From: Methanocellales archaeon
GTDB lineage: Archaea; Halobacteriota; UBA148
DNA: 64,000 nucleotides
Reading direction: 5' to 3'
Assembly: GCA_028715985.1 (NCBI GenBank)
Contig: JAQUQR010000001.1
Span: 125,927 to 189,926 of the forward strand
Shown here: positions 9,095-62,864 of the stretch, one piece after another
How the letters are laid out: each line of letters opens with the position of its first letter
Numbering within the stretch: the stretch's first letter is position 1
The notes under the pieces: generated by a model
Database searches by the model: none
Seen by the model: only the letters and a program-made list of their open reading frames with translations
What the model was told of the DNA's origin: nothing
Program-made: the position numbers and the translations under genes

Positions 9095-10276
9095 TTGTAT
9101 TTATTGGGCGAAGCATTGATCGGTGAAGAACCAGAGATCGCGCACATTGATTTGGTCATCGGAGACAAAAACGGGCCTGTAGGGATGGCATTTGTCAACG
9201 CGATGTCTCATATGTCTGCTGGGCACACTCCGCTCTTAGCAGTCATCAGACCAAATCTACCAACTAAGCCATCCACGTTGGTCGTTCCGAAGGTCACCGT
9301 GCAAAATCTAGAGCAGGCTGCGCAAGTTTTCGGACCTGCACAGACGGCCGTTGCAAAGGCTGTGGCAGATGCGGTGGAAGAGGGTTTGATTCCTAAAGAT
9401 AAAGCAGAGGAGTTAGTCCTAATAGTGAGCGTTTTTATCCATCCAAAGGCAGAGGATTATGGTAAGATTTACCGCTATAACTATGGGGCGACAAAACTAG
9501 CAATACAGCGAGCTATGGAAGGATTTCCTTCGGTGGATAAAATAATATATGAAAAAGATCGATCTATTCATCCGATCATGGGTTTCAAGATTGTGAAATT
9601 GTGGGATCCACCCTATCTGCAGGTCGCGTTGGATATACCGAGCATAGAGTCAACTAAAAAGGTGCTCGAAGAGTTACCAGAGAGCGACCACCTGATCCTA
9701 GAGGCAGGTACGCCACTGATAAAAAGATATGGCCTAGATATAATTCAAAAGATGAGAGAAATTCGAAGGGACGCGTTCATCGTTGCAGACCTTAAGACGC
9801 TGGACGTCGGTAACCTAGAGGCTAGAATGGCGGCAGACGCCACCGCTGATGCGCTCGTCGTATCTGGATTGGCGCCTCCTGCGACCATTGAAAAAGTGAT
9901 AACAGAAGCCAGAAAAACCGGGATTTGCTCTGTCATAGACATGCTAAACGTTGGAGATCCCAAGGGCTTACTGGAGCGATTAACCGTTATGCCGGATGTA
10001 GTTGAGCTACATAGGGCGATAGATGTAGAATCCAAGGAAATAAAGCATGCGTGGAGTGATATTAAAGGGATTAAACTTCTTTCGGATAAGATGTTGGTGG
10101 CAGTAGCAGGCGGTATCGTGGCCGACAACGCTAAAGAAGCGATCAAATCAGGTGCAGATATCCTCATCGTTGGCAGGGCTATCACCAAGGCAAAAGACAT
10201 CGAGGGCATGGCAAGGCGTTTCCTTGAGCTGATGAAGGAAGAAATCGATCAGTTTAGAGTGATGACTGATTTCTGA
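9095..10276 (+). CDS. fae-hps: Bifunctional formaldehyde-activating enzyme / 3-hexulose-6-phosphate synthase (Fae-Hps fusion).
   Basis: N-terminal Fae signature ([26 protein letters not shown]) fused to an OMP-decarboxylase-like Hps domain. 393 aa. Confidence 0.8.
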
Positions 10277-13427: not shown

Positions 13428-14027
13428 TTGGTTTTTTATCATGTGAATGAGGACGATGATATGACCCCTAAGGAGACAGTTAAAGAAAGCATCGAAAAAA
13501 TGTTCCTAAGGGAGAAACCTGCAAGCATCTTGCTAGCGATTGCAAAGCAGAGTAAACCCTACGCATCTGTCATCTCAAAAGAAGTTGATGCCACATATGC
13601 ACACACTACAAGCGTGCTCTCTGAAATGGAGCACCATGGGTTAATCTCCTCTAGTCAAGATGGCAGAGTGAAGTATATTGAGCTTACCGATCTCGGCAAG
13701 AACATAGCGGAGGCATTAAGCGTATTGATTAGTGCCTTTGGAGAAGTTCAAGTTATCCCAAAAGCTGAGGTAGATACAGAATTACAGAAGAAAATAACTT
13801 CCTTACGTTTGAGAGTGGAGAGGATATATAAAGAAGAGTTCGCTTGCAGAAACTCTCTTAGTATGACAGAGTCCACCAAGGTAAGTAGGAGGCTTGGACC
13901 ATATTGCAGGGAAATACGCAAGATGGACACGATACCTATTCGAGCCGAATCATTGAGAAAAGAGTTTGATGAGCTGAAGAAACGTATAGAAGAACTTATG
14001 TTGCTTAAAGAAAAGCTCAAGTCCTAG
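13428..14027 (+). CDS. Winged-helix DNA-binding protein with a coiled-coil C-terminus.
   Basis: ArsR/MarR-like wHTH region with a Lys/Glu-rich heptad tail. Confidence 0.45.
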   Translation: MVFYHVNEDDDMTPKETVKESIEKMFLREKPASILLAIAKQSKPYASVISKEVDATYAHTTSVLSEMEHHGLISSSQDGRVKYIELTDLGKNIAEALSVLISAFGEVQVIPKAEVDTELQKKITSLRLRVERIYKEEFACRNSLSMTESTKVSRRLGPYCREIRKMDTIPIRAESLRKEFDELKKRIEELMLLKEKLKS

Positions 14028-14380: not shown

Positions 14381-14827
14381 TCATAGCGTTTCCGGCGAAT
14401 TTTCCAGAATGGTAACCCACCACCACTTTGCCATGTCTACTAAGTCTTTGCTAAACTTTCCAGACAGGTGATATTCTCCACCCCTTATCTCCAGTAGTCC
14501 AGCACCCAATAATTTATTCCGCATGGAATAGAACGAGGATCGGCCGATATCCAGTTCCTTCATCAAGAGACTCCATTCGCTGACCAATATGGGTTGACCA
14601 GCCTTCTTTCTTTCCTCAACTATCTCAAGAAAACCTTTGGCCCTCATAGCTGTCACCTCTCCTTGAAACAGTCTATGCATGAGTTCAAGATAAGGGTCCC
14701 GAGATTGTGTTATTCTAGCTGTAGTGTGCGATCTTACAACCAGCGTGGTAGCCGTCCTAGGGGCATCTTTTACTTTGGTCATGGGTTCTTCCTTACCCTC
14801 CTCCTTTTTATATACCGTTTTCTTCAA
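14381..14827 (-). CDS. Hypothetical protein, possibly a wHTH regulator.
   Basis: Intact 148 aa ORF with an HTH-like segment [34 protein letters not shown]. Confidence 0.4.
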
Positions 14828-14829
14828 CT

Positions 14830-15888
14830 ATCGCTATTTCTGTTGGTGTCAGCCCATAACTTATACACCTTTTTATCAATAGCTCTATCTTATCGTCCAA
14901 TTTCGTTCACTCATTTCATTCAATCAATTGACAGTAATTAAATACGACACTAATCAACTTAATCATACCTCTATTTTATATCCCTATTTTCAATTAACTC
15001 TCAACTTTTAACTCTCACTTTTTTCCACACCAACCATTTTTAACAAAACATTCATTACATTATTTTAATTAATTTCTTTTTTTATTTTATCTTTTTTCTT
15101 TTTTAGATGAAAAATATAATCTTAGATGTATCTCAGATGTATCTCACTTCATCTAATTTTAAGCCTTATAAAAGAATTAATTTGTTATTATTCCTTTTTT
15201 ATGACTTATTTATCTTAAAAAAACCTTTAAAATAACTTTTCAATCTTGAAATCAGCGAACTTTTTTGATTACAATTGATTTTGGTTCAAACAACATATGG
15301 ATTTTCCTATTTTCAGTTTTTGATGTGCATAGTACTACTGAATAGACTTCTTTTTCATCCGTATTACAAATAATATAAGAACAAATTTTCAGCACCCAAA
15401 AAATCTTGATGATTGTCAACTCAATCATTCCAAAGTATATAGGAATTTATGTTATGGTATGTGCAACTCCCCCCTTAACGACCAAAAGTATGTCAAAATC
15501 GATCATTCAGAAATTTTTTGAGTTTTGTTCCTATATAAGTTGTAATACTTGTTCTCTATGTTAATTCGTTTTACAATAAAGTTCCTTTTTCTTTTTTATA
15601 AGATATATTTTATATAATATTTATGGTACCCAATTTAGTTAGATGAAATAGCCTAAAATAAATATATAATCACATCTAAATAAAAAATATTTGGCTAATT
15701 CTAATAGTTATATTAGAAAGTATATTATATGACATTATTGTTATGATATACTCTTTTTAGAGTATATTTTTTTAGGGAGCCTAAAATATATTTAGGATAA
15801 CCTAAAAATTGAAACAACCAAAAAGAATTAAATTGTGGATTAAAAAATATGAGAAGAGGAAAAGTGAGAGTTCTGAAGAAAAATCACC
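14830..15888. other. About 1.06 kb AT-rich ORF-free intergenic region.
   Basis: No ORF of 60 aa or more on any strand. Roughly 20-25% GC against about 45% in flanking genes. Contains the short direct repeat agatgtatctc x2 and cctaaaat / atttagg palindromic pieces. Confidence 0.6.
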
Positions 15889-16281
15889 TTAATTCTCTTT
15901 TTCGTTGCCCAAAGAGTATTCTATTGGTTTTGGCCCATACTTTGTGATGATGGTATTTATCTGACTGATGTTAATGGATATCTCTCGTCCACAGACTTCT
16001 TTTCGTCTTCTTTGGCCTTCATCTATTGGGTGGTGCCCCGTCCCTCCAAACGTCAAGACTTTTCGCCGCTGACTCCCAGACAAATCCTCTCGCATTGGAA
16101 ATCCATTTTTATCTGTTCCACCTGTGATCTGCAACTCGTAACCAGGGAGTTCAAGTAACTCTCCGTCAATTGTGCTGCCGATCCTCTTGCCCACAAGCTT
16201 ATCTGCATGTGCTTCAGAAACTTCCACTTGATATGCCTTCCCCTTCTGGGGATCTGAAATGACTACTCTAAAGTTCACCAT
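15889..16281 (-). CDS. rps6e: 30S ribosomal protein S6e.
   Basis: Typical S6e sequence, placed in the conserved position downstream of aIF5B. Confidence 0.85.
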   Translation of the reverse strand: MVNFRVVISDPQKGKAYQVEVSEAHADKLVGKRIGSTIDGELLELPGYELQITGGTDKNGFPMREDLSGSQRRKVLTFGGTGHHPIDEGQRRRKEVCGREISINISQINTIITKYGPKPIEYSLGNEKEN

Positions 16282-16289
16282 GTTTTTAC

Positions 16290-18065
16290 CTACCTAGCCC
16301 AAAATGGGTCAATTTTCCTTTTTATTTCTAGAAACTCCTTCAACGTCTCAAGCTCGTCCGCAGGTATTGTGTCACATAACTCCTGTTCTATGGTCCTCGC
16401 ATGTTTTTTTGGAATATCCACATATAAAATATCCCCTTCTTTTATTTGTCTTCCAACAGTGGGCCCTTCGATGGATACTGCAGCCTCTTTTCCGGCAACA
16501 GCTTCATTTCTACTCTCTCCGTGTTCTTGGATGCCCTTGATTATTCCAACGTTTATGCCACTCTCTTTGATTACAGAAACCCCAGGCTTGATTTTACCAC
16601 CGAGTATTTTCACCCCAACGATTGCTGGCTTACTTTTCCTAAAAACACAACCTGGCATAAGCCTGAGCTTACCAGCCCTAATGATTGCCTCCAGTTCTTT
16701 CCTCTCAGATATCGACTGCCGTTCTTTAACCCATATATTATAATCCTCTAACAGCCGATAGATGACATTACCTTGAAATACTTGAACCTTGGACCTCAAC
16801 GCCTCATCTTTTGCATCTTGAAGCATCTCTACACAAAATCCGATGACGACCGCTAAATAGGGATCCCTAATCGTTGCAGCCTCTATGATGTCTCGTTTAG
16901 AAATGTCACCCACATCAGCCTTCCATATCGGAACTTTGGCATCGTTTAGCTCTTGCACTAACGCCTCTAAAGATCCAATTGTATCTGCTTTGAGGGTTAC
17001 ACCGATCTCGTCTGTCTTAATCTTTACTTCATCCAATTCGGATTTAATGTCATTTGATATTTTTTCTACTAGGGCCTCATCCTCAACAACTCGCATAGGT
17101 GAGCCAGCCAGTGCGCTCTCCAGAGAATGTGCAACTACCTTTATACCTGCTGCTGCAACGATTTTATCTACTCGCTGAAACTTTTCTTCGATCCTGATCT
17201 CGGTCAGAGGTCTTGGCTTTAATAGTGCACGAACTCTTGTCACGATTGGCTCCCCATAACTACCTACTATTATCGTATCTCCAGTCTTAAGTTCTCCATC
17301 ATATAATATTACATCGAGTGTTTTGCCAAGCCCCCTCTCTTCTTTGACCTCTAGCACAGTCCCCATACCTGGGCCTTTTGCATGAAGTCTTAGATCTCCC
17401 TCGAGGAAGCGTTGTGCTAAGCCTATCAAGATCATCAGTAAATCTGGGATCCCCTCTCCGGTCTTAGCGCTAATTGGAATAACGCCGACATTCTTCTGGA
17501 AGTCCCTGATTCTATCATACCTATCGGAACTAAAACCCGCTTCATTTAGCTGATTGATCAGCCTATAGACGAGGTTGTCGAGTGATCTTTTTGTATATTC
17601 GCTTTGATTCTCATATGTTAATATAAATGCTTTATCCTCATGTGGGCGCCATCCATGAATTCGATCGATTTTGTTTGCTGCTAATACAAAAGGTGTCTTA
17701 AAACGGCGAAGGATTTTAAGAGCTTCTGTCGTCTGAGGTTGAAAACCCTCTGTTGCATCGACAACTAAAACCGCTAGATCTGCTAATGCCCCGCCCCTGC
17801 TCCTAAGCGTTGTAAAGGCATGGTGTCCGGGCGTATCGATGAAAAGCAGTCCAGGGACTTTGAAGTCGCCCTTCATGAGAGAGCCGCATTTATCCTGAAT
17901 GGTTGCTAGGGGGACTTCAGTAGCACCTATATGCTGGGTGATGGCTCCCTTTTCTTGCTCCGCTATGCTGGTACCTCGTATCTCATCTAGTAACGATGTT
18001 TTTCCATGATCGATATGGCCCAATACACATATGATCGGAGTTCTTAGATCTGCCTTTTTTACCAT
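16290..18065 (-). CDS. infB: Translation initiation factor aIF5B (IF-2 homolog).
   Basis: GHIDHGKT G1 motif, DTPGH motif, 591 aa. Confidence 0.9.
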   Translation of the reverse strand: MVKKADLRTPIICVLGHIDHGKTSLLDEIRGTSIAEQEKGAITQHIGATEVPLATIQDKCGSLMKGDFKVPGLLFIDTPGHHAFTTLRSRGGALADLAVLVVDATEGFQPQTTEALKILRRFKTPFVLAANKIDRIHGWRPHEDKAFILTYENQSEYTKRSLDNLVYRLINQLNEAGFSSDRYDRIRDFQKNVGVIPISAKTGEGIPDLLMILIGLAQRFLEGDLRLHAKGPGMGTVLEVKEERGLGKTLDVILYDGELKTGDTIIVGSYGEPIVTRVRALLKPRPLTEIRIEEKFQRVDKIVAAAGIKVVAHSLESALAGSPMRVVEDEALVEKISNDIKSELDEVKIKTDEIGVTLKADTIGSLEALVQELNDAKVPIWKADVGDISKRDIIEAATIRDPYLAVVIGFCVEMLQDAKDEALRSKVQVFQGNVIYRLLEDYNIWVKERQSISERKELEAIIRAGKLRLMPGCVFRKSKPAIVGVKILGGKIKPGVSVIKESGINVGIIKGIQEHGESRNEAVAGKEAAVSIEGPTVGRQIKEGDILYVDIPKKHARTIEQELCDTIPADELETLKEFLEIKRKIDPFWAR

Positions 18066-18430: not shown

Positions 18431-18913
18431 TTGCTTTCCCTCTATGTCATAGTCCATGGCGTTATGTATGGGCCCACATTACAAGAAAATGAAAAACAAC
18501 TAGACGATTTAGCCTACATCAAAATAATGGCTGCTGGGTATAGTGACGATGCTGATTCCGAATCTGAAGGTGTCGCTATTGATGTTGTTTATTATGATAG
18601 TAAAAGCGAACCTATTGATTTCACGAATGTTCCGATGAATGTTGTCATAGAATTGTATGGCTATCACGATATCTCAGATACCTTTGATCAGGATAAAATG
18701 GAATTAGTACATAAAGAATCTATTACCATAGACCATTCAATGAGGTTGGGCGAAATGTTTGGAAAATACATTAGAATTCCCTTTGATGACATTTCAGTCG
18801 ATTCCAAAGAGTACTACGAATATGGGACGATCAAAGTAACAGTAGAGATGCTGGGGAAAGGAAAATTTTCAGATGAAACCGATTTAGTTCCGTTATACAA
18901 AGTAACTGTCTGA
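18431..18913 (+). CDS. Hypothetical protein with an N-terminal hydrophobic anchor. It may be the C-terminal part of a gene begun at 18171.
   Basis: The listed ORF begins at TTG. A +1 frame continuation from the T9 run joins it to 18171..18362. Confidence 0.4.
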   Translation: MLSLYVIVHGVMYGPTLQENEKQLDDLAYIKIMAAGYSDDADSESEGVAIDVVYYDSKSEPIDFTNVPMNVVIELYGYHDISDTFDQDKMELVHKESITIDHSMRLGEMFGKYIRIPFDDISVDSKEYYEYGTIKVTVEMLGKGKFSDETDLVPLYKVTV

Positions 18914-22136: not shown

Positions 22137-23327
22137 ATGTCAAATCCTAGGCTCGAAATAGCGAAGAAGCACATATTTTCAACTGGTTTAGAGGATATAG
22201 GCTCTTCACTCTGCAGGGAAAACATGAAATATGGAATTGCGAAGATTCACTGGATACAAGAACAATTGGGTATGGAGTCTAACGCTATCTTTCTCTCAGG
22301 TCCAGATGAAACTGTCACCAAGAACAAAATGAGATGGACCAATGGTTTTGGTTATGGGGGCAAGATCTCGTGGGGTGATGGGACCTCTAAGGCAATAATC
22401 TTGGATGTGATGCCGAATGCCTGCGGTATGCTTGTCGGAGGCATGGATGAACTGCCACAGCCTGGCAGTCTCATAGAGCGAATCAATGATATAGAGACCA
22501 AGGAATCATATATCGATGATGTCCAAGTAAAATGGGATTTTAGTCAAAGCAACCATTTTATTGATGTATTCAAGGTCGTAAGATTAGCCGACATAGATTT
22601 TCCTGATTATGCGTTTATTATCCATAGTGGGGCGCCAGAATTAAAGGGCGACAATGTTAAGGGATTTGGGCTTTATGTTCATAAAAGTGAGATACTAAGT
22701 GAAATGGCAGAGACGATAGAAACACCATTTGGAAGGTCAAACGTAATTCTCGATAATGATGCGACAGAATATTTACGCTTCTTTCATTTTGCAGATAATT
22801 TTTCCAAGAAAAAGAGAAGGTTAGCAGCAAAAATGTTATTTGAAGATTTTGAGGAGATATCAAATCCATTACATCAGGGGTTATTGAACTATAATGAGAT
22901 TATTTTGGGCTCACATTACATAAAAGACGAGAGAGGGTCCCTGTTCCCCATAGCCCTGAGAGCAGATCTGCCCGCATATTTGATAAAGGGCAAAGAGAAT
23001 CTCTCTGATGAAATGATTGAAATTCTAGGTTTTTCCAAGAGGGCGAAAACTTTGGGCGTTTATTCATCTTTAAAAAATGCGAATATTTTACCCCATGGAG
23101 GAGGATATACGTTTAGAGACCTGCTCACGGTGACAAATGTAATTGAAGTAAAAGGTGAGAGATACTTTGAGGTTGAGATGCACAATGCTATAGGGCATAA
23201 AATATTTAGTAATCCCAAAGACATCGAGTTTATTTATAGGGGTAGGGAAGTCGTGATTAAAACACTTGAATTAGGTCTTGGAGAACTGGCAGCAAGACTT
23301 ATACCCGAATATGTGTTAAAAGTTTAA
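22137..23327 (+). CDS. Divergent RtcB-family paralog (RtcB-like protein).
   Basis: Shares the metal-ligand motif series with the bona fide RtcB at 59449: GFGYG...DVMPNACG, SNHF, IHSG, SHY and PHGGG. It is shorter, at 396 aa. Confidence 0.5.
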   Translation: MSNPRLEIAKKHIFSTGLEDIGSSLCRENMKYGIAKIHWIQEQLGMESNAIFLSGPDETVTKNKMRWTNGFGYGGKISWGDGTSKAIILDVMPNACGMLVGGMDELPQPGSLIERINDIETKESYIDDVQVKWDFSQSNHFIDVFKVVRLADIDFPDYAFIIHSGAPELKGDNVKGFGLYVHKSEILSEMAETIETPFGRSNVILDNDATEYLRFFHFADNFSKKKRRLAAKMLFEDFEEISNPLHQGLLNYNEIILGSHYIKDERGSLFPIALRADLPAYLIKGKENLSDEMIEILGFSKRAKTLGVYSSLKNANILPHGGGYTFRDLLTVTNVIEVKGERYFEVEMHNAIGHKIFSNPKDIEFIYRGREVVIKTLELGLGELAARLIPEYVLKV

Positions 23328-33516: not shown

Positions 33517-33981
33517 CTATTTACGATAAGATAAATCTTCATTCATTTTATTTACGATGTCTCTAATCTGTTTTGAACTAATAATTAACATATAAATAAA
33601 GAATATGTAAGTTAAAAAAAACAAAATCAAATACTCTGTATTTACCATATCAGCTGATAAAAGGACCAGGTAACCTATCGTTAACATAAATAATATGAAA
33701 AGCCACATAGTGGTAGTATTTAGGATTCCCCTATTATTTTTTAAATTATACCAACTGTCCAAGTAAGATTTATAGTTCTCAATCTTCTCTCTGCTAACGT
33801 CTTCAGCCTCAGCCAAATTCTTGGTTTCTGTAATTAGAACTTCATTGAAGTATTTTGTTTCAATTTCATCGAGTTCCTTTTCGCTTCTCTGTAATAGGAA
33901 TTTTCTTGCACTGAATAAAGCAGCACCTATGACTGCTAATATTGCACCTCCCCCAAATAATATAGTAGACGTGTCAACCAT
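33517..33981 (-). CDS. Hypothetical membrane protein.
   Basis: N-terminal and C-terminal TM helices, 154 aa. Confidence 0.4.
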   Translation of the reverse strand: MVDTSTILFGGGAILAVIGAALFSARKFLLQRSEKELDEIETKYFNEVLITETKNLAEAEDVSREKIENYKSYLDSWYNLKNNRGILNTTTMWLFILFMLTIGYLVLLSADMVNTEYLILFFLTYIFFIYMLIISSKQIRDIVNKMNEDLSYRK

Positions 33982-37291: not shown

Positions 37292-37366
37292 TGGGGTTGC
37301 TGAGACTTGAACTCAGGTCACGGCGACCCGAACGCCGAAGGATAAACCAGACTACCCCACAACCCC
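37292..37366 (-). tRNA. tRNA-Pro (anticodon CGG).
   Basis: Acceptor GGGGTTG/CAACCCC, anticodon stem CGGCG/CGCCG with loop TTCGGGT, and T-arm CTGAGTTCAAGTCTCAG. Confidence 0.75.
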
Positions 37367-56061: not shown

Positions 56062-56886
56062 TTACCTCCTGATAATATTTAATATTGCAAGAGTTGCTAA
56101 TATTGCCTCTTCTGTTCTGACAGTATCGGTCCCTTGATTTGGGATCGTGTTTATTATGTGGTCAGCGAGATCAGATAGGAGTAAGCCCTCTTCCTCCAGG
56201 ATGGTATCAAGTCCTCTATTTGGGGAGCCAAACGCAATCGAGATTTCCCCTTTCATCGCCTCTCTCAGCTTGGACAGCATTTTTACGTCCACGACTTCGC
56301 CACATTTGGACGTCGCAATAACCTTGGACTGTGCTTTCAGCGTTTCACCTAATGTCCCTGAGATGTGGGTTTGATACCCCCAATATAGTGGGATTTGATC
56401 CTTATCTGCTAATTTAACCTGCAATGGCCTTCGCGAAAATATTTTGACGGTTACACGCTCCCCCTTCTGCAAGATTTTATCTGTGCTTAAAGGGACTGGG
56501 CTTTTTATCCCGATATCAACCCAAGCGTTTTCGCCAGGTCCAACTTTGGTTACGATTCCTTCTCGAAATTCTCCTGTCTTAGGAGTTAGCAATGGATGGT
56601 GTGGAGTTCGCAGTGGTGGGATGACACCCACATATCTTAGCTCCTCGCTCAACGGAAACAACTGCTTACGCATGTACTGTGGTGTTTCTGCATACCTAAG
56701 CACCAGGTCGATGAATTTGCTGTCGTCGTACTCCGGATCTTTGTAGATTATGATCTTGCCCACCCGGAATATCGAGGCCGATCTTGCGATTTGTCCTACC
56801 TTGTATATCTTGATTCGTGGATCCCTACTCTCAGATGTCAGAGAGGAGGGTATCAGTATTGACAGATAGCACTGCATTGCTGTCAT
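56062..56886 (-). CDS. Predicted SPOUT-superfamily RNA methyltransferase (COG2106-like).
   Basis: 274 aa in the conserved archaeal position at the head of the L3 operon. Confidence 0.6.
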   Translation of the reverse strand: MTAMQCYLSILIPSSLTSESRDPRIKIYKVGQIARSASIFRVGKIIIYKDPEYDDSKFIDLVLRYAETPQYMRKQLFPLSEELRYVGVIPPLRTPHHPLLTPKTGEFREGIVTKVGPGENAWVDIGIKSPVPLSTDKILQKGERVTVKIFSRRPLQVKLADKDQIPLYWGYQTHISGTLGETLKAQSKVIATSKCGEVVDVKMLSKLREAMKGEISIAFGSPNRGLDTILEEEGLLLSDLADHIINTIPNQGTDTVRTEEAILATLAILNIIRR

Positions 56887-60995: not shown

Positions 60996-61940
60996 TCAAA
61001 ACCATTTTCTCTTTTTAAAGTAAAGAACCATAGATGCACTCAACAAAATCATAATAAAAATCATTATCCAAAAACCGTATATAAAACTTGAACCTGGCAG
61101 ATTTGTAAAATTAGTTCCATAAATTCCTGAAATTACGGTTAAGGGCAAAGCAATTGTAGCAATAATACTCAATACTTTCATTACTTCATTCATGCTATTG
61201 GAAACAGCTGACATATATGCGTCAAAAGTATTGCCTACAGCTTCCCTATAATTGTCAATGGAATCTGAAACTTTTATTGAATGATCGTAAATGTCTCTGA
61301 AATAAGGAATGGCATTTTGGGGTATGAACTTGTAGTCATTTTTAGCAAGAAATGATATTTTCTCCCTCTGTGGTAATGTGATCTTTTTTATTTCTACTAT
61401 CTGCCTTTTTAACTTGAGGGTACTGCTTAACAATTCGGGTTTTGGCTTTTTTGCTATCTCTTCTTCAATGGTTTCAATTAAGTCGTCAATCTTTTCCAAT
61501 GCGGGAAAATAATTATCAACTTCATTATCCAAGAGCTTATGGAAAAGAAAAACATTTCCTTTTTCGAATAGTTCGCTTAACCTCTCTTTATCATTTTTTA
61601 ATTTATTATAGGATTCAATATCCTTTTTATGATTGGTTATTAGAAAGTTATCTCCTATTATATAATCCAATTCAACCATTTCAATGGATTCTAGGCTTGC
61701 TATTCCATAGAACACGCAAAATAAATAATGTGGAAAATCTTCAACTTTCACCCTAATATTTGAGTTAAAAAGGTCTTCAGCAGTCAATGGATGAAGCTCA
61801 AATGTTTTTTGTATTAGCTCTTTCTCTTCTTCAGAAATATCCGTAATATCGATCCATAATTGTTTATTTTTGATATTTTTTAAATCTGAAATTTTAGCTT
61901 TTTGTACACCGTTTTCATAAAAAAATATCTCTATCATCAA
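60996..61940 (-). CDS. CorA-family divalent cation transporter with a GTN motif in place of GMN.
   Basis: CorA-like cytoplasmic domain and two C-terminal TM helices, with YGTNF at the position of the canonical YGMNF. Confidence 0.65.
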   Translation of the reverse strand: MMIEIFFYENGVQKAKISDLKNIKNKQLWIDITDISEEEKELIQKTFELHPLTAEDLFNSNIRVKVEDFPHYLFCVFYGIASLESIEMVELDYIIGDNFLITNHKKDIESYNKLKNDKERLSELFEKGNVFLFHKLLDNEVDNYFPALEKIDDLIETIEEEIAKKPKPELLSSTLKLKRQIVEIKKITLPQREKISFLAKNDYKFIPQNAIPYFRDIYDHSIKVSDSIDNYREAVGNTFDAYMSAVSNSMNEVMKVLSIIATIALPLTVISGIYGTNFTNLPGSSFIYGFWIMIFIMILLSASMVLYFKKRKWF

Positions 61941-62096
61941 GTAAAGTTATTGTTTGTATATTATATATAAATCTTTTTTTATGTGAGTAGGGCTGAAGAA
62001 TCATCCAAGGAATGGCTATTTTAAAATATATTTTTGGAACGTTAAACCTTTCTTTGATTAAGGTTTTTGAGTGACCAGATCATTCATAAAAAATAG

Positions 62097-62735
62097 TTAA
62101 GATCCAATCTGGCAAGACTCAAACCATTCGACGTTTAACAGGGTCTTATGGATTTTTTTGATACGTTCCTTTGGTCCCTCTATTAAGAATGTTGAGGAAA
62201 GCTCCCCCTTTTCCTTATTTATTTCTAAAGTTATCAACTTATATTTTTTCACTCCGTTTTCTTTTAAAACTGCGATTATCTCTTTTTCGTCAATTATTTT
62301 ATTCGTACACACAACTATTTTTTGTTGGTAGGAGCCTATCCCTTTTTTAGCAAGAATTTGGTCAAATAGGATGACCACCCAGATTATCATATAGAGATTA
62401 AACCCAATCCGATACTGCCCAAGGCCAATAATGAGACCTAAAATTGCAAATAACCAAATACTGGCTGCTGTTGTGAATCCAAAAATTTTATCGGTAGTTC
62501 TTATTAATGCACCAGCACCTAAGAATCCAATACCTGTTACGATGGCTCCAAGTAAAGGAAATGGATTAGTAGAGTCTACATCCATTGCTATTATTGCTAA
62601 AGCACAAGAGCCCGCAGATACAAAAATGAAAGTGCCAAATCCGATTGGTTTATGGGACCTCTGCCTTTCTAGACCAAATATTAATGCCATTATGAAGGTG
62701 ATAGTTAGTCTTAAGATTATTATGGAAGTTTTCAT
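62097..62735 (-). CDS. mgtC: MgtC/SapB family membrane protein.
   Basis: MgtC N-terminal TM domain (LERQ motif region), 212 aa. Confidence 0.75.
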   Translation of the reverse strand: MKTSIIILRLTITFIMALIFGLERQRSHKPIGFGTFIFVSAGSCALAIIAMDVDSTNPFPLLGAIVTGIGFLGAGALIRTTDKIFGFTTAASIWLFAILGLIIGLGQYRIGFNLYMIIWVVILFDQILAKKGIGSYQQKIVVCTNKIIDEKEIIAVLKENGVKKYKLITLEINKEKGELSSTFLIEGPKERIKKIHKTLLNVEWFESCQIGS

Positions 62736-62784
62736 GGTGATTCCCCTTTCTGTAGAACTATTTAAAGTTATTTAAAAAAGGAGG

Positions 62785-62864
62785 TTTGCACCTAAAGTCG
62801 GTTTTGACCTTAAAGTCGGGAGTCTGACCCTAAAGTCGGGATTCCTCCCTACTTTAGGTGCAAA
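62785..62864. repeat. Composite repeat element: a 14-bp perfect inverted repeat (tttgcacctaaagt / actttaggtgcaaa) enclosing three tandem copies of the (g)acCyTAAAGTCGG repeat.
   Basis: Direct repeats at 62788-62801, 62806-62820 and 62826-62840, with the inverted arm at 62851-62864. The element lies in the mgtC upstream and lipoprotein upstream divergent region. Confidence 0.65.

Follow-up and report, generated by a model that had tools for sequence, protein, structure and literature searches.

Archaeal genomes are dense, so some 860 bp of selected non-coding DNA is uncommon in them and raises the question of what such DNA might do. We ask this of an AT-rich element that lies between the gene for ribosomal protein S6e and a gene of the AF_0843 family in a 64-kb stretch of a Methanocellales archaeon (contig JAQUQR010000001.1); this whole stretch is called the window below, and the closest relatives of its DNA are other Methanocellales metagenome-assembled genomes. 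A preliminary description of the window had pointed out an extremely AT-rich segment, free of open reading frames (ORFs), beside the aIF5B-S6e operon. The segment is real, with slightly corrected coordinates, and its core is conserved in relatives across two sister clades. Our tentative answer, drawn from sequence comparison, is that the element may be an autonomous non-coding regulatory locus that combines operator-like sites with at least one small-RNA unit.

A conserved, gene-free region beside the S6e gene

The gap between the AF_0843-like gene (start codon ATG at 14782) and the S6e gene spans 14783–15888, a length of 1106 bp with no called genes. Its GC content is 25.8%, and that of its core (15008–15874) 23.8%, compared with ~43% for the window; A+T is 76% in the element vs 57% across the window, and the lowest-GC 1-kb interval of the 64 kb falls here. 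Duplex stability of 50-mers reaches its minimum for the 64 kb at 15034–15086, and 15561–15727 is likewise among the least stable DNA. The segment had been described as lacking any ORF of at least 60 aa over 14830–15888. This holds in all six frames for 14942–15888 (947 bp), which is the longest such stretch in the 64 kb (the runner-up measures 503 bp), and fails for 14830–14941, where a 115-aa ORF (14594–14941, plus strand) runs antisense to the AF_0843-like gene. The accompanying remark that intergenic gaps in the window are usually under 150 bp was too strong, as other gaps of 300–500 bp are present.

The spacer is found at the same position in 10 related taxa belonging to two sister clades. 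The order S6e, AT-rich spacer (~830–1210 bp), AF_0843 and PadR-like gene is kept in L002, L003, L004, L006, L015, L007, L028 and L049/L050 (L-numbers denote syntenic loci from relatives, used for all comparisons), as well as in four further assemblies of the L003 species. Alignment divides the spacer into a variable part (14783–15007), whose identity to relatives runs from 0.79 down to 0.07 and which is missing from L015 and L007, and the conserved core. Core identity was above that of 4-fold degenerate sites of aIF5B in L003 (0.87 vs 0.82), L002 (0.86 vs 0.85), L006 (0.72 vs 0.62), L004 (0.68 vs 0.56) and L015 (0.71 vs 0.59), and identity in other intergenic regions of the same loci was 0.15–0.80. 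Because the core is more conserved than both the 4-fold sites and these other intergenic regions, the element is not a neutral spacer; these comparisons indicate that ~860 bp of 76% A+T DNA is under purifying selection in a family-level Methanocellales clade. The synteny comparison proposed in the preliminary description thus shows an S6e-spacer arrangement that relatives share, with a spacer core conserved above the neutral level. That description had also allowed for a spacer shared by relatives but holding no repeats of interest; the repeats turned out to be its best-conserved parts. A functional region, rather than filler, is supported.

Profiles of the three modules described below (nhmmer) gave zero further matches in the window or in the fetched loci of anaerobic methanotrophic archaea, Methanosarcinales and Archaeoglobi. 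As judged from these sequences, the element appears specific to this lineage, with one copy per locus among the loci examined. A metagenome scan with AF_0843 returned distant loci only (61% identity), presumably of the Methanosarcinales type.

Organization of the element

The element and its parts are as follows (window coordinates; strand given where one applies).

14783–15888: whole AT-rich intergenic region; no called gene, GC 0.258
14783–15007: variable sub-region, from the alignment; short tandem repeats, and the proximal TATA box and Shine-Dalgarno sequence of AF_0843
15008–15874: conserved core, from alignment identity; three modules (15008–15300, 15355–15550 and 15590–15874)
15010–15022, plus strand: left boundary motif AACTCTCACTTTT followed by a T-run; present in every relative
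15054–15104, plus strand: T-rich tract of at least 92% A+T, from a duplex-stability scan (40-nt windows of at least 92.5% A+T); T-rich in both clades
15103–15157: AGAT/ATCT half-site array with ATCT every 10–11 bp, from repeats and alignment
15361–15385, plus strand: left inverted repeat of 24–25 nt, from a repeat search; holds motif copy M1 (TTACAAATAATATAAGAAC)
15386–15523: cassette interior, inverted in clade 2 relative to clade 1
15413–15446, plus strand: motif copy M2 (TTCCAAAGTATATAGGAAT) with 15 conserved upstream bases (15413–15427); resembles a promoter with a transcription factor B recognition element and TATA box (BRE/TATA)
15461–15519, plus strand: predicted small-RNA body, from the conservation pattern; start near 15461–15466, end in the oligo-T at 15514–15519
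15524–15548, minus strand: right inverted repeat of 24–25 nt, from a repeat search; holds motif copy M3, degenerate in clade 2
15590–15810: module 3, where A+T is highest and the duplex least stable; TATA-like blocks and a palindrome
15860–15872, minus strand: right boundary motif, inverted AACTCTCACTTTT, 17 nt past the S6e stop codon

The two boundary motifs are the sole copies of this 13-nt sequence in the window, the left one being accompanied by a degenerate tandem copy at 14996–15008. At the right boundary the T-run is 4–8 nt long among relatives, and this motif is likely to be part of the S6e operon terminator. Extending the terminal inverted repeat past 13–15 nt gave nothing better than shuffled sequence. 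In some clade-2 relatives (L049, L031) AACTCTCACTTTT occurs once more inside the element, as a third copy that is inverted and lies between modules 1 and 2; in L049 it is at positions 302–318 of the spacer (reverse complement of 9148–10000, in window orientation); in these same relatives the right-end copy is degenerate.

At the centre of the half-site array are two adjacent AGAT-RY-ATCT palindromes, 11 bp apart, at 15124–15133 and 15135–15144. These correspond to a direct repeat already noticed in the preliminary description, and AGATGTATCT has its sole matches in the window at these two sites. The array is kept in every relative whose contig spans the site, with variation limited to the central RY pair and a single spacer base, and the variants, read from the alignment, do not preserve an RNA hairpin.

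The middle module is built around a 19-nt motif, TTMCAA-N4-TATARGAAY, present in three copies: M1 at 15364–15382 (plus strand), M2 at 15428–15446 (plus) and M3 at 15527–15545 (minus). M1 and M3 lie within 25-nt inverted-repeat arms, 88% complementary, that enclose a cassette of ~190 bp, and the inverted motif pair keeps a fixed 99-nt spacing in both clades. M2 is similar to the aIF5B promoter ATTCTTATATA. Module 3, which is bounded at 15874 as a module of the core and at 15810 in its own line of the list, has conserved TATA-like blocks ATATATAAT at 15662–15670 and TATATTAT at 15721–15728. The palindromic pieces reported earlier were also found in it, as CCTAAAAT at 15652–15659 and 15780–15787 and as the longer palindrome CCTAAAATATATTTAGG at 15780–15796. 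On the plus strand the left half of the element is dominated by T-runs and the right half by A-runs; A-tract tetranucleotides are more frequent than composition predicts (0.148 vs 0.107, z 3.4), and AA/TT dinucleotides have no helical periodicity.

Coding capacity and RNA structure

Does the element encode something small that gene callers overlook? A 42-codon ORF at 15107–15235 (plus strand), which overlaps the AGAT-RY-ATCT array, is open in five of the six clade-1 relatives, and L003, with TAG at codon 10, is the one taxon that does not keep its first 13 codons. Nonetheless, the ratio of non-synonymous to synonymous change (pN/pS) was 0.88 for this ORF and 0.67 for a second one at 15406–15564, no lower than in the off-frames, compared with 0.08 for a control gene. 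Taken alone, the first 13–14 codons of the 42-codon ORF gave 0.54 vs 0.36–0.58 off-frame, again with no coding signature. As the small ORFs also contain stop codons in relatives (L003, L006, L004), small protein genes were rejected.

Searches for a familiar RNA were similarly negative. Rfam 15, at gathering and at permissive thresholds, has no match in the region (best E 1.1, far below gathering) or in the spacers of two relatives, so that the Rfam check suggested at the outset does not assign the region to a known RNA; a scan for transfer and transfer-messenger RNAs found none in the region. Sliding RNAalifold windows on both strands gave consensus energies of 0 to -8.5 kcal/mol per 120 nt and no stable structure, and the long inverted-repeat stem has a compensatory change in only two of 42 pairs. 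With no Rfam match and almost no covariation, a known or structured RNA was rejected.

A central cassette inverted between clades

Comparison of the two clades revealed that 15395–15545 matches L049, L028 and L007 only in reverse (E 6e-12, 6e-12 and 4e-7, respectively), while modules 1 and 3 are collinear in the same three loci; L015 is collinear over the entire element. The loci with the inverted cassette, L028, L007, L031 and L049/L050, constitute clade 2, and when the orientations are placed on a neighbour-joining tree of AF_0843 proteins, each belongs to one of the two sister clades, so that one event accounts for the pattern. Five assemblies of one species (L003, L052–L055) agree in orientation, as do two of another (L049, L050), and the right inverted repeat has decayed in clade 2. 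Because orientation is uniform within species, the clade-2 repeat is decayed and there is no recombinase in the window, these sequences indicate that the inversion is a fixed evolutionary event and not a demonstrated switch.

A true inverton, that is, a promoter switch that flips the ~190-bp cassette to alter local transcription, is accordingly very improbable in our estimation, even with 24–25-nt inverted repeats around a promoter-like motif and a cassette found in both orientations among relatives. Archaeal invertons have been reported and are scarcely studied. Here, in contrast, orientation tracks phylogeny, the multiple assemblies of both species show no heterogeneity, one of the two repeats is degraded throughout clade 2, and neither the Pfam-scanned ORFs of the window nor the gene tables include a recombinase. 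Four contigs (L005, L031, L051, L055) end inside the element or beside it: L055 and L031 adjoin the stretch of highest A+T (window ~15561–15727), L051 stops ~20 nt past M1 and L005 69 nt past aIF5B. These ends are probably due to a loss of coverage where A+T is extreme, and not to mixed orientations.

That the cassette is conserved in either orientation implies an autonomous or symmetric unit and not part of one long transcript. The inversion thus provides a clean natural experiment, in which function is independent of orientation. The long non-coding RNA considered in the preliminary description is, as a single long RNA, unlikely (the central ~190 bp are inverted between collinear flanks, and there is no conserved structure), whereas one or more short RNAs in the region are possible.

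A candidate regulatory and small-RNA locus

Invariant columns, counted over nine taxa with clade 2 turned round, make up 74% of M2, 7% of the next 14 nt (15447–15460), 41% of the following 51 nt and 50% of the T-run. This alternation fits a promoter, a spacer, a transcript and a terminator. M2 would then be a BRE/TATA promoter starting a plus-strand RNA near 15461–15466, and this RNA would be ~55 nt long, C-rich and unstructured, ending at the oligo-T at 15514–15519. The two AGAT-RY-ATCT palindromes, which lie on one face of the helix because they are 11 bp apart, could serve a dimeric regulator as its operator, placed directly downstream of TATA-like boxes, and M1 and M3 could be further promoters or factor-binding sites that double as inverted repeats. 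At the ends of the element, the inverted AACTCTCAC and T-run motifs may stop transcription that runs in from the S6e operon or the opposite flank, and the many T-runs, facing outward-to-inward on both sides, may help to shield the locus in this way.

That the element and the AF_0843 gene can be separated (see below) supports the proposal of a regulatory and small-RNA locus. Several points weigh against it. TATA-like strings are common in DNA of 76% A+T and do not show clearly which way they point; several relatives have no more than T4 as oligo-T; and neither RNA structure nor covariation (RNAalifold, stem fold) nor an Rfam match was found. Furthermore, a regulatory locus of 860 bp would be a long one for an archaeon, the candidate RNA unit spans only ~100 bp of this conserved length, and no transcript model is convincing for modules 1 and 3. 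Finally, an origin, a partition site or a chromatin boundary could make use of the same motifs. On balance we offer it as a tentative proposal, itself open to considerable doubt, that this is a lineage-specific, single-copy element acting through DNA-binding proteins and local transcription, as opposed to a gene, a structured RNA or a classical origin.

Replication, chromosome organization and neighbouring genes

Could the element instead be a site at which the chromosome is replicated? In an orphan origin, or another replication-associated unwinding site with non-canonical motifs, M1–M3 would be ORB-like (ORB, origin recognition box), the initiator would bind at the AGAT-RY-ATCT array, and unwinding would take place in the T-rich tract or in module 3. 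We consider this unlikely, if worth keeping in view. It would make sense of the least stable duplex of the 64 kb, of the inverted pair of 19-nt motifs, whose spacing is fixed in both clades, of the nested inverted repeats with their outward-facing protection from transcription, and of a change in GC skew from -0.58 to +0.14 across the element, a shift that is local and, over 64 kb only, confounded by gene strand; some archaeal origins, moreover, have no adjacent initiator gene. Several observations argue the other way. The Methanomicrobia ORB, TCCA[GC]T[GT]GAAA[CT][AG]A[AT]GGGGT (PMC4164010), has no match in the window at up to three mismatches, and mini-ORBs are not above chance (11 window matches vs 13.3 expected, none in 14783–15888), so the motif search recommended in the preliminary description came back empty. 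No AAA+/Cdc6 domain turned up when 29 ORFs of the window were scanned with Pfam, nor in the gene tables for the fetched loci, no Orc1/Cdc6, WhiP or primase gene occurs in the window or the fetched loci, and tblastn with an approximate Cdc6 query sequence, a weak test, found nothing. The interval between the inverted 19-nt copies is the least AT-rich and most sequence-conserved DNA, unlike an unwinding element, with the least stable DNA outside it (15561–15727 and 15034–15086); gene blocks, large ribosomal-protein operons included, point toward the element and not away from it; and the Methanocella paludicola origin is predicted beside cdc6, with mini-ORBs. A classical Orc1/Cdc6 origin was rejected for want of a canonical ORB and of a nearby Orc1/Cdc6 gene, in agreement with the doubt about a primary origin voiced earlier, which had been based on the absence of Orc1/Cdc6 nearby; none was present among the window ORFs scanned.

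A role in chromosome architecture, as a domain boundary, a loading or stalling site for nucleoid proteins, or a segregation site, seems to us distinctly unlikely. The composition invites it, as this is a ~1-kb, A-tract-rich intergenic region of high A+T at a point of gene convergence, traits that it shares with a dif boundary and for which the Thermococcus kodakarensis dif region is a precedent; phased palindromes are present, and the PadR-like neighbour is weakly similar to AspA, a protein that binds centromeres (E 0.04). A purely structural role, on the other hand, would not need base-by-base conservation, the missing helical periodicity of AA/TT does not favour one, and this order is not known to have TrmBL2, which also counts against it. 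Scored as an imperfect inverted repeat with 11-bp arms and a 6-bp spacer (TAA-N6-8-TTA), the sole TAA-N6-TTA candidate for dif in the element (15554–15581, 8/11) sits in an indel-rich, non-conserved part, and a dif site was rejected since no 11-6-11 site is conserved. Taking replication and organization together, it is possible, at a low but not negligible probability, that the element is a family-specific chromosomal cis site (an orphan origin, segregation or domain-boundary site) with no initiator gene beside it. Recognition would then go through motifs unrelated to ORB and dif, namely the phased AGAT-RY-ATCT palindromes and TTMCAA-N4-TATARGAAY.

Two simpler explanations appeal to the flanks and to mobile DNA. 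The genes concerned are the following.

15889–16281, minus strand: ribosomal protein S6e gene, flanking (PF01092, E 6.7e-42)
16290–18065, minus strand: aIF5B gene, upstream of S6e in the same operon
14381–14782, minus strand: AF_0843-family winged-helix gene, flanking (133 aa, family match)
13461–14027, plus strand: PadR-like winged-helix gene (DUF6293_C), second neighbour (domain match)

The last two are the winged-helix neighbours on one flank that the preliminary description had recognized. Under the first explanation the element would be nothing but an extended promoter or operator for its neighbours, made up of the S6e operon terminator and the upstream control region of AF_0843. We think this improbable, although the right boundary motif and T-run lie 17 nt past the S6e stop codon and the winged-helix proteins encoded next door might bind the palindromes to regulate their own genes. 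A TATA box and a Shine-Dalgarno sequence belonging to the AF_0843-like gene itself lie no more than ~40 nt from its ATG (~14783–14816, minus strand; GGTATATAAAAAGGAGGAGGG upstream of the ATG), 860 bp far exceeds what a terminator needs, and AF_0843 homologues in Archaeoglobi and Methanosarcinales have upstream gaps of 30–80 bp and no such element. In L051 a restriction-modification island separates AF_0843, there with a 50-bp upstream gap, from the element, which is retained despite the insertion. A link between the element and AF_0843 was rejected given the homologues without an element in other orders and the separation of the two by the island, so the winged-helix genes mentioned in the preliminary description need not be connected with the element. 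The second explanation, a decayed or domesticated mobile element (a cassette like a miniature inverted-repeat transposable element, or the remnant of an integrated element) or else small proteins of under 60 aa, is extremely improbable. Small proteins have the coding tests above against them. The cassette does have a size and terminal inverted repeats like those of such transposable elements, but it is single-copy in the window and at all loci, has no target-site duplication in its flanks and occupies an orthologous position in two clades; plasmid and phage BLAST gave no match, and viral contigs gave matches only at the chance level estimated from pattern length and collection size. The decayed integrated element of the preliminary description is hard to reconcile with an orthologous, single-copy sequence under purifying selection in two sister clades and without a match in mobile collections.

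Other observations

The island in L051 (486–5152; also in L029 and L030) comprises two genes, one for an MmeI-like type IIG restriction-modification protein of 1090 aa and one of 465 aa that has no Pfam family. The AF_0843 family (PF27297; 133 aa) is 60–65% identical across Archaeoglobi, Methanosarcinales and Methanocellales, with 40 invariant columns. Its invariant residues include some in an N-terminal 27-aa tail that is disordered in the AlphaFold model, and its core folds as a generic winged helix, without a closely related solved structure or other informative relative.

Elsewhere in the window, 56444–56537 (minus strand) matches the Rfam L4-Archaeoglobi ribosomal-protein leader (RF03135) at 43.2 bits vs a gathering threshold of 34.5; as this is a Methanocellales genome, the range of the family is wider than its name. 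A tRNA-Pro(CGG) was identified by ARAGORN at 37292–37366 (minus strand) and is missing from the Rfam gathering list, which has three tRNAs only. A second low-GC patch (0.30–0.35) at 61000–62800 covers the CorA and MgtC magnesium-transport genes and may have been acquired horizontally. Three ORFs, at 22137–23327 (plus), 18431–18913 (plus) and 33517–33981 (minus), have no Pfam match, and the first two have no NCBIfam match either; the one at 22137–23327 is a 396-aa gene conserved beside the glutamyl/glutaminyl-tRNA synthetase gene.

Significance and comparison with known systems

The element marks a function missed by annotation in a poorly known, uncultured branch of Methanocellales, and it offers experimental handles in its two phased palindromes, its thrice-repeated TATA-containing motif and its ~55-nt candidate small RNA. 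The closed 987-kb genome CP061209.1 carries it as well, at about 609 kb. Should the proposed small-RNA and operator locus be borne out, a new regulatory RNA family would be added; should it be an origin or an architecture site, recognition by neither ORB nor dif would widen what is known of archaeal chromosome replication and organization.

How does the element compare with systems already described? Like an archaeal Orc1/Cdc6 origin, with its succession of ORB, unwinding element and ORB, it is ORF-free, AT-rich, single-copy and unstable as a duplex, and it has an inverted motif pair. Unlike such an origin, it has no canonical ORB, G-string or nearby initiator gene, the DNA between its motifs is conserved and relatively GC-rich, and its flanking genes converge. 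In T. kodakarensis, boundary 1 is a 1.9-kb intergenic region of >75% A+T around dif (Yamaura et al., 2025; PMC11840125). The element resembles this region (PMC11840125) in being >75% A+T and A-tract-rich, in its convergent genes, in its conserved flanking sequence and in its inverted repeats, and differs from it in having no conserved 11-6-11 dif and in belonging to a different order. With the invertible promoters of bacteria (fimS, hin, Bacteroides invertons) it has in common the inverted repeats that bound a ~190-bp cassette with a promoter-like motif, found in both orientations; in contrast to these, its orientation is fixed within clades and species, no invertase lies close by and one of its repeats is degenerate in clade 2.

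Methanogens have small-RNA genes in long AT-rich intergenic regions, the loci of the Methanosarcina mazei type. The element differs from these loci in having no Rfam family and no structure, and is like them in its promoter-like BRE/TATA, its short conserved body, its oligo-T end and its independence of orientation. Thus, while no named family fits the element, it is best treated within the broad class of conserved non-coding regulatory and small-RNA loci.

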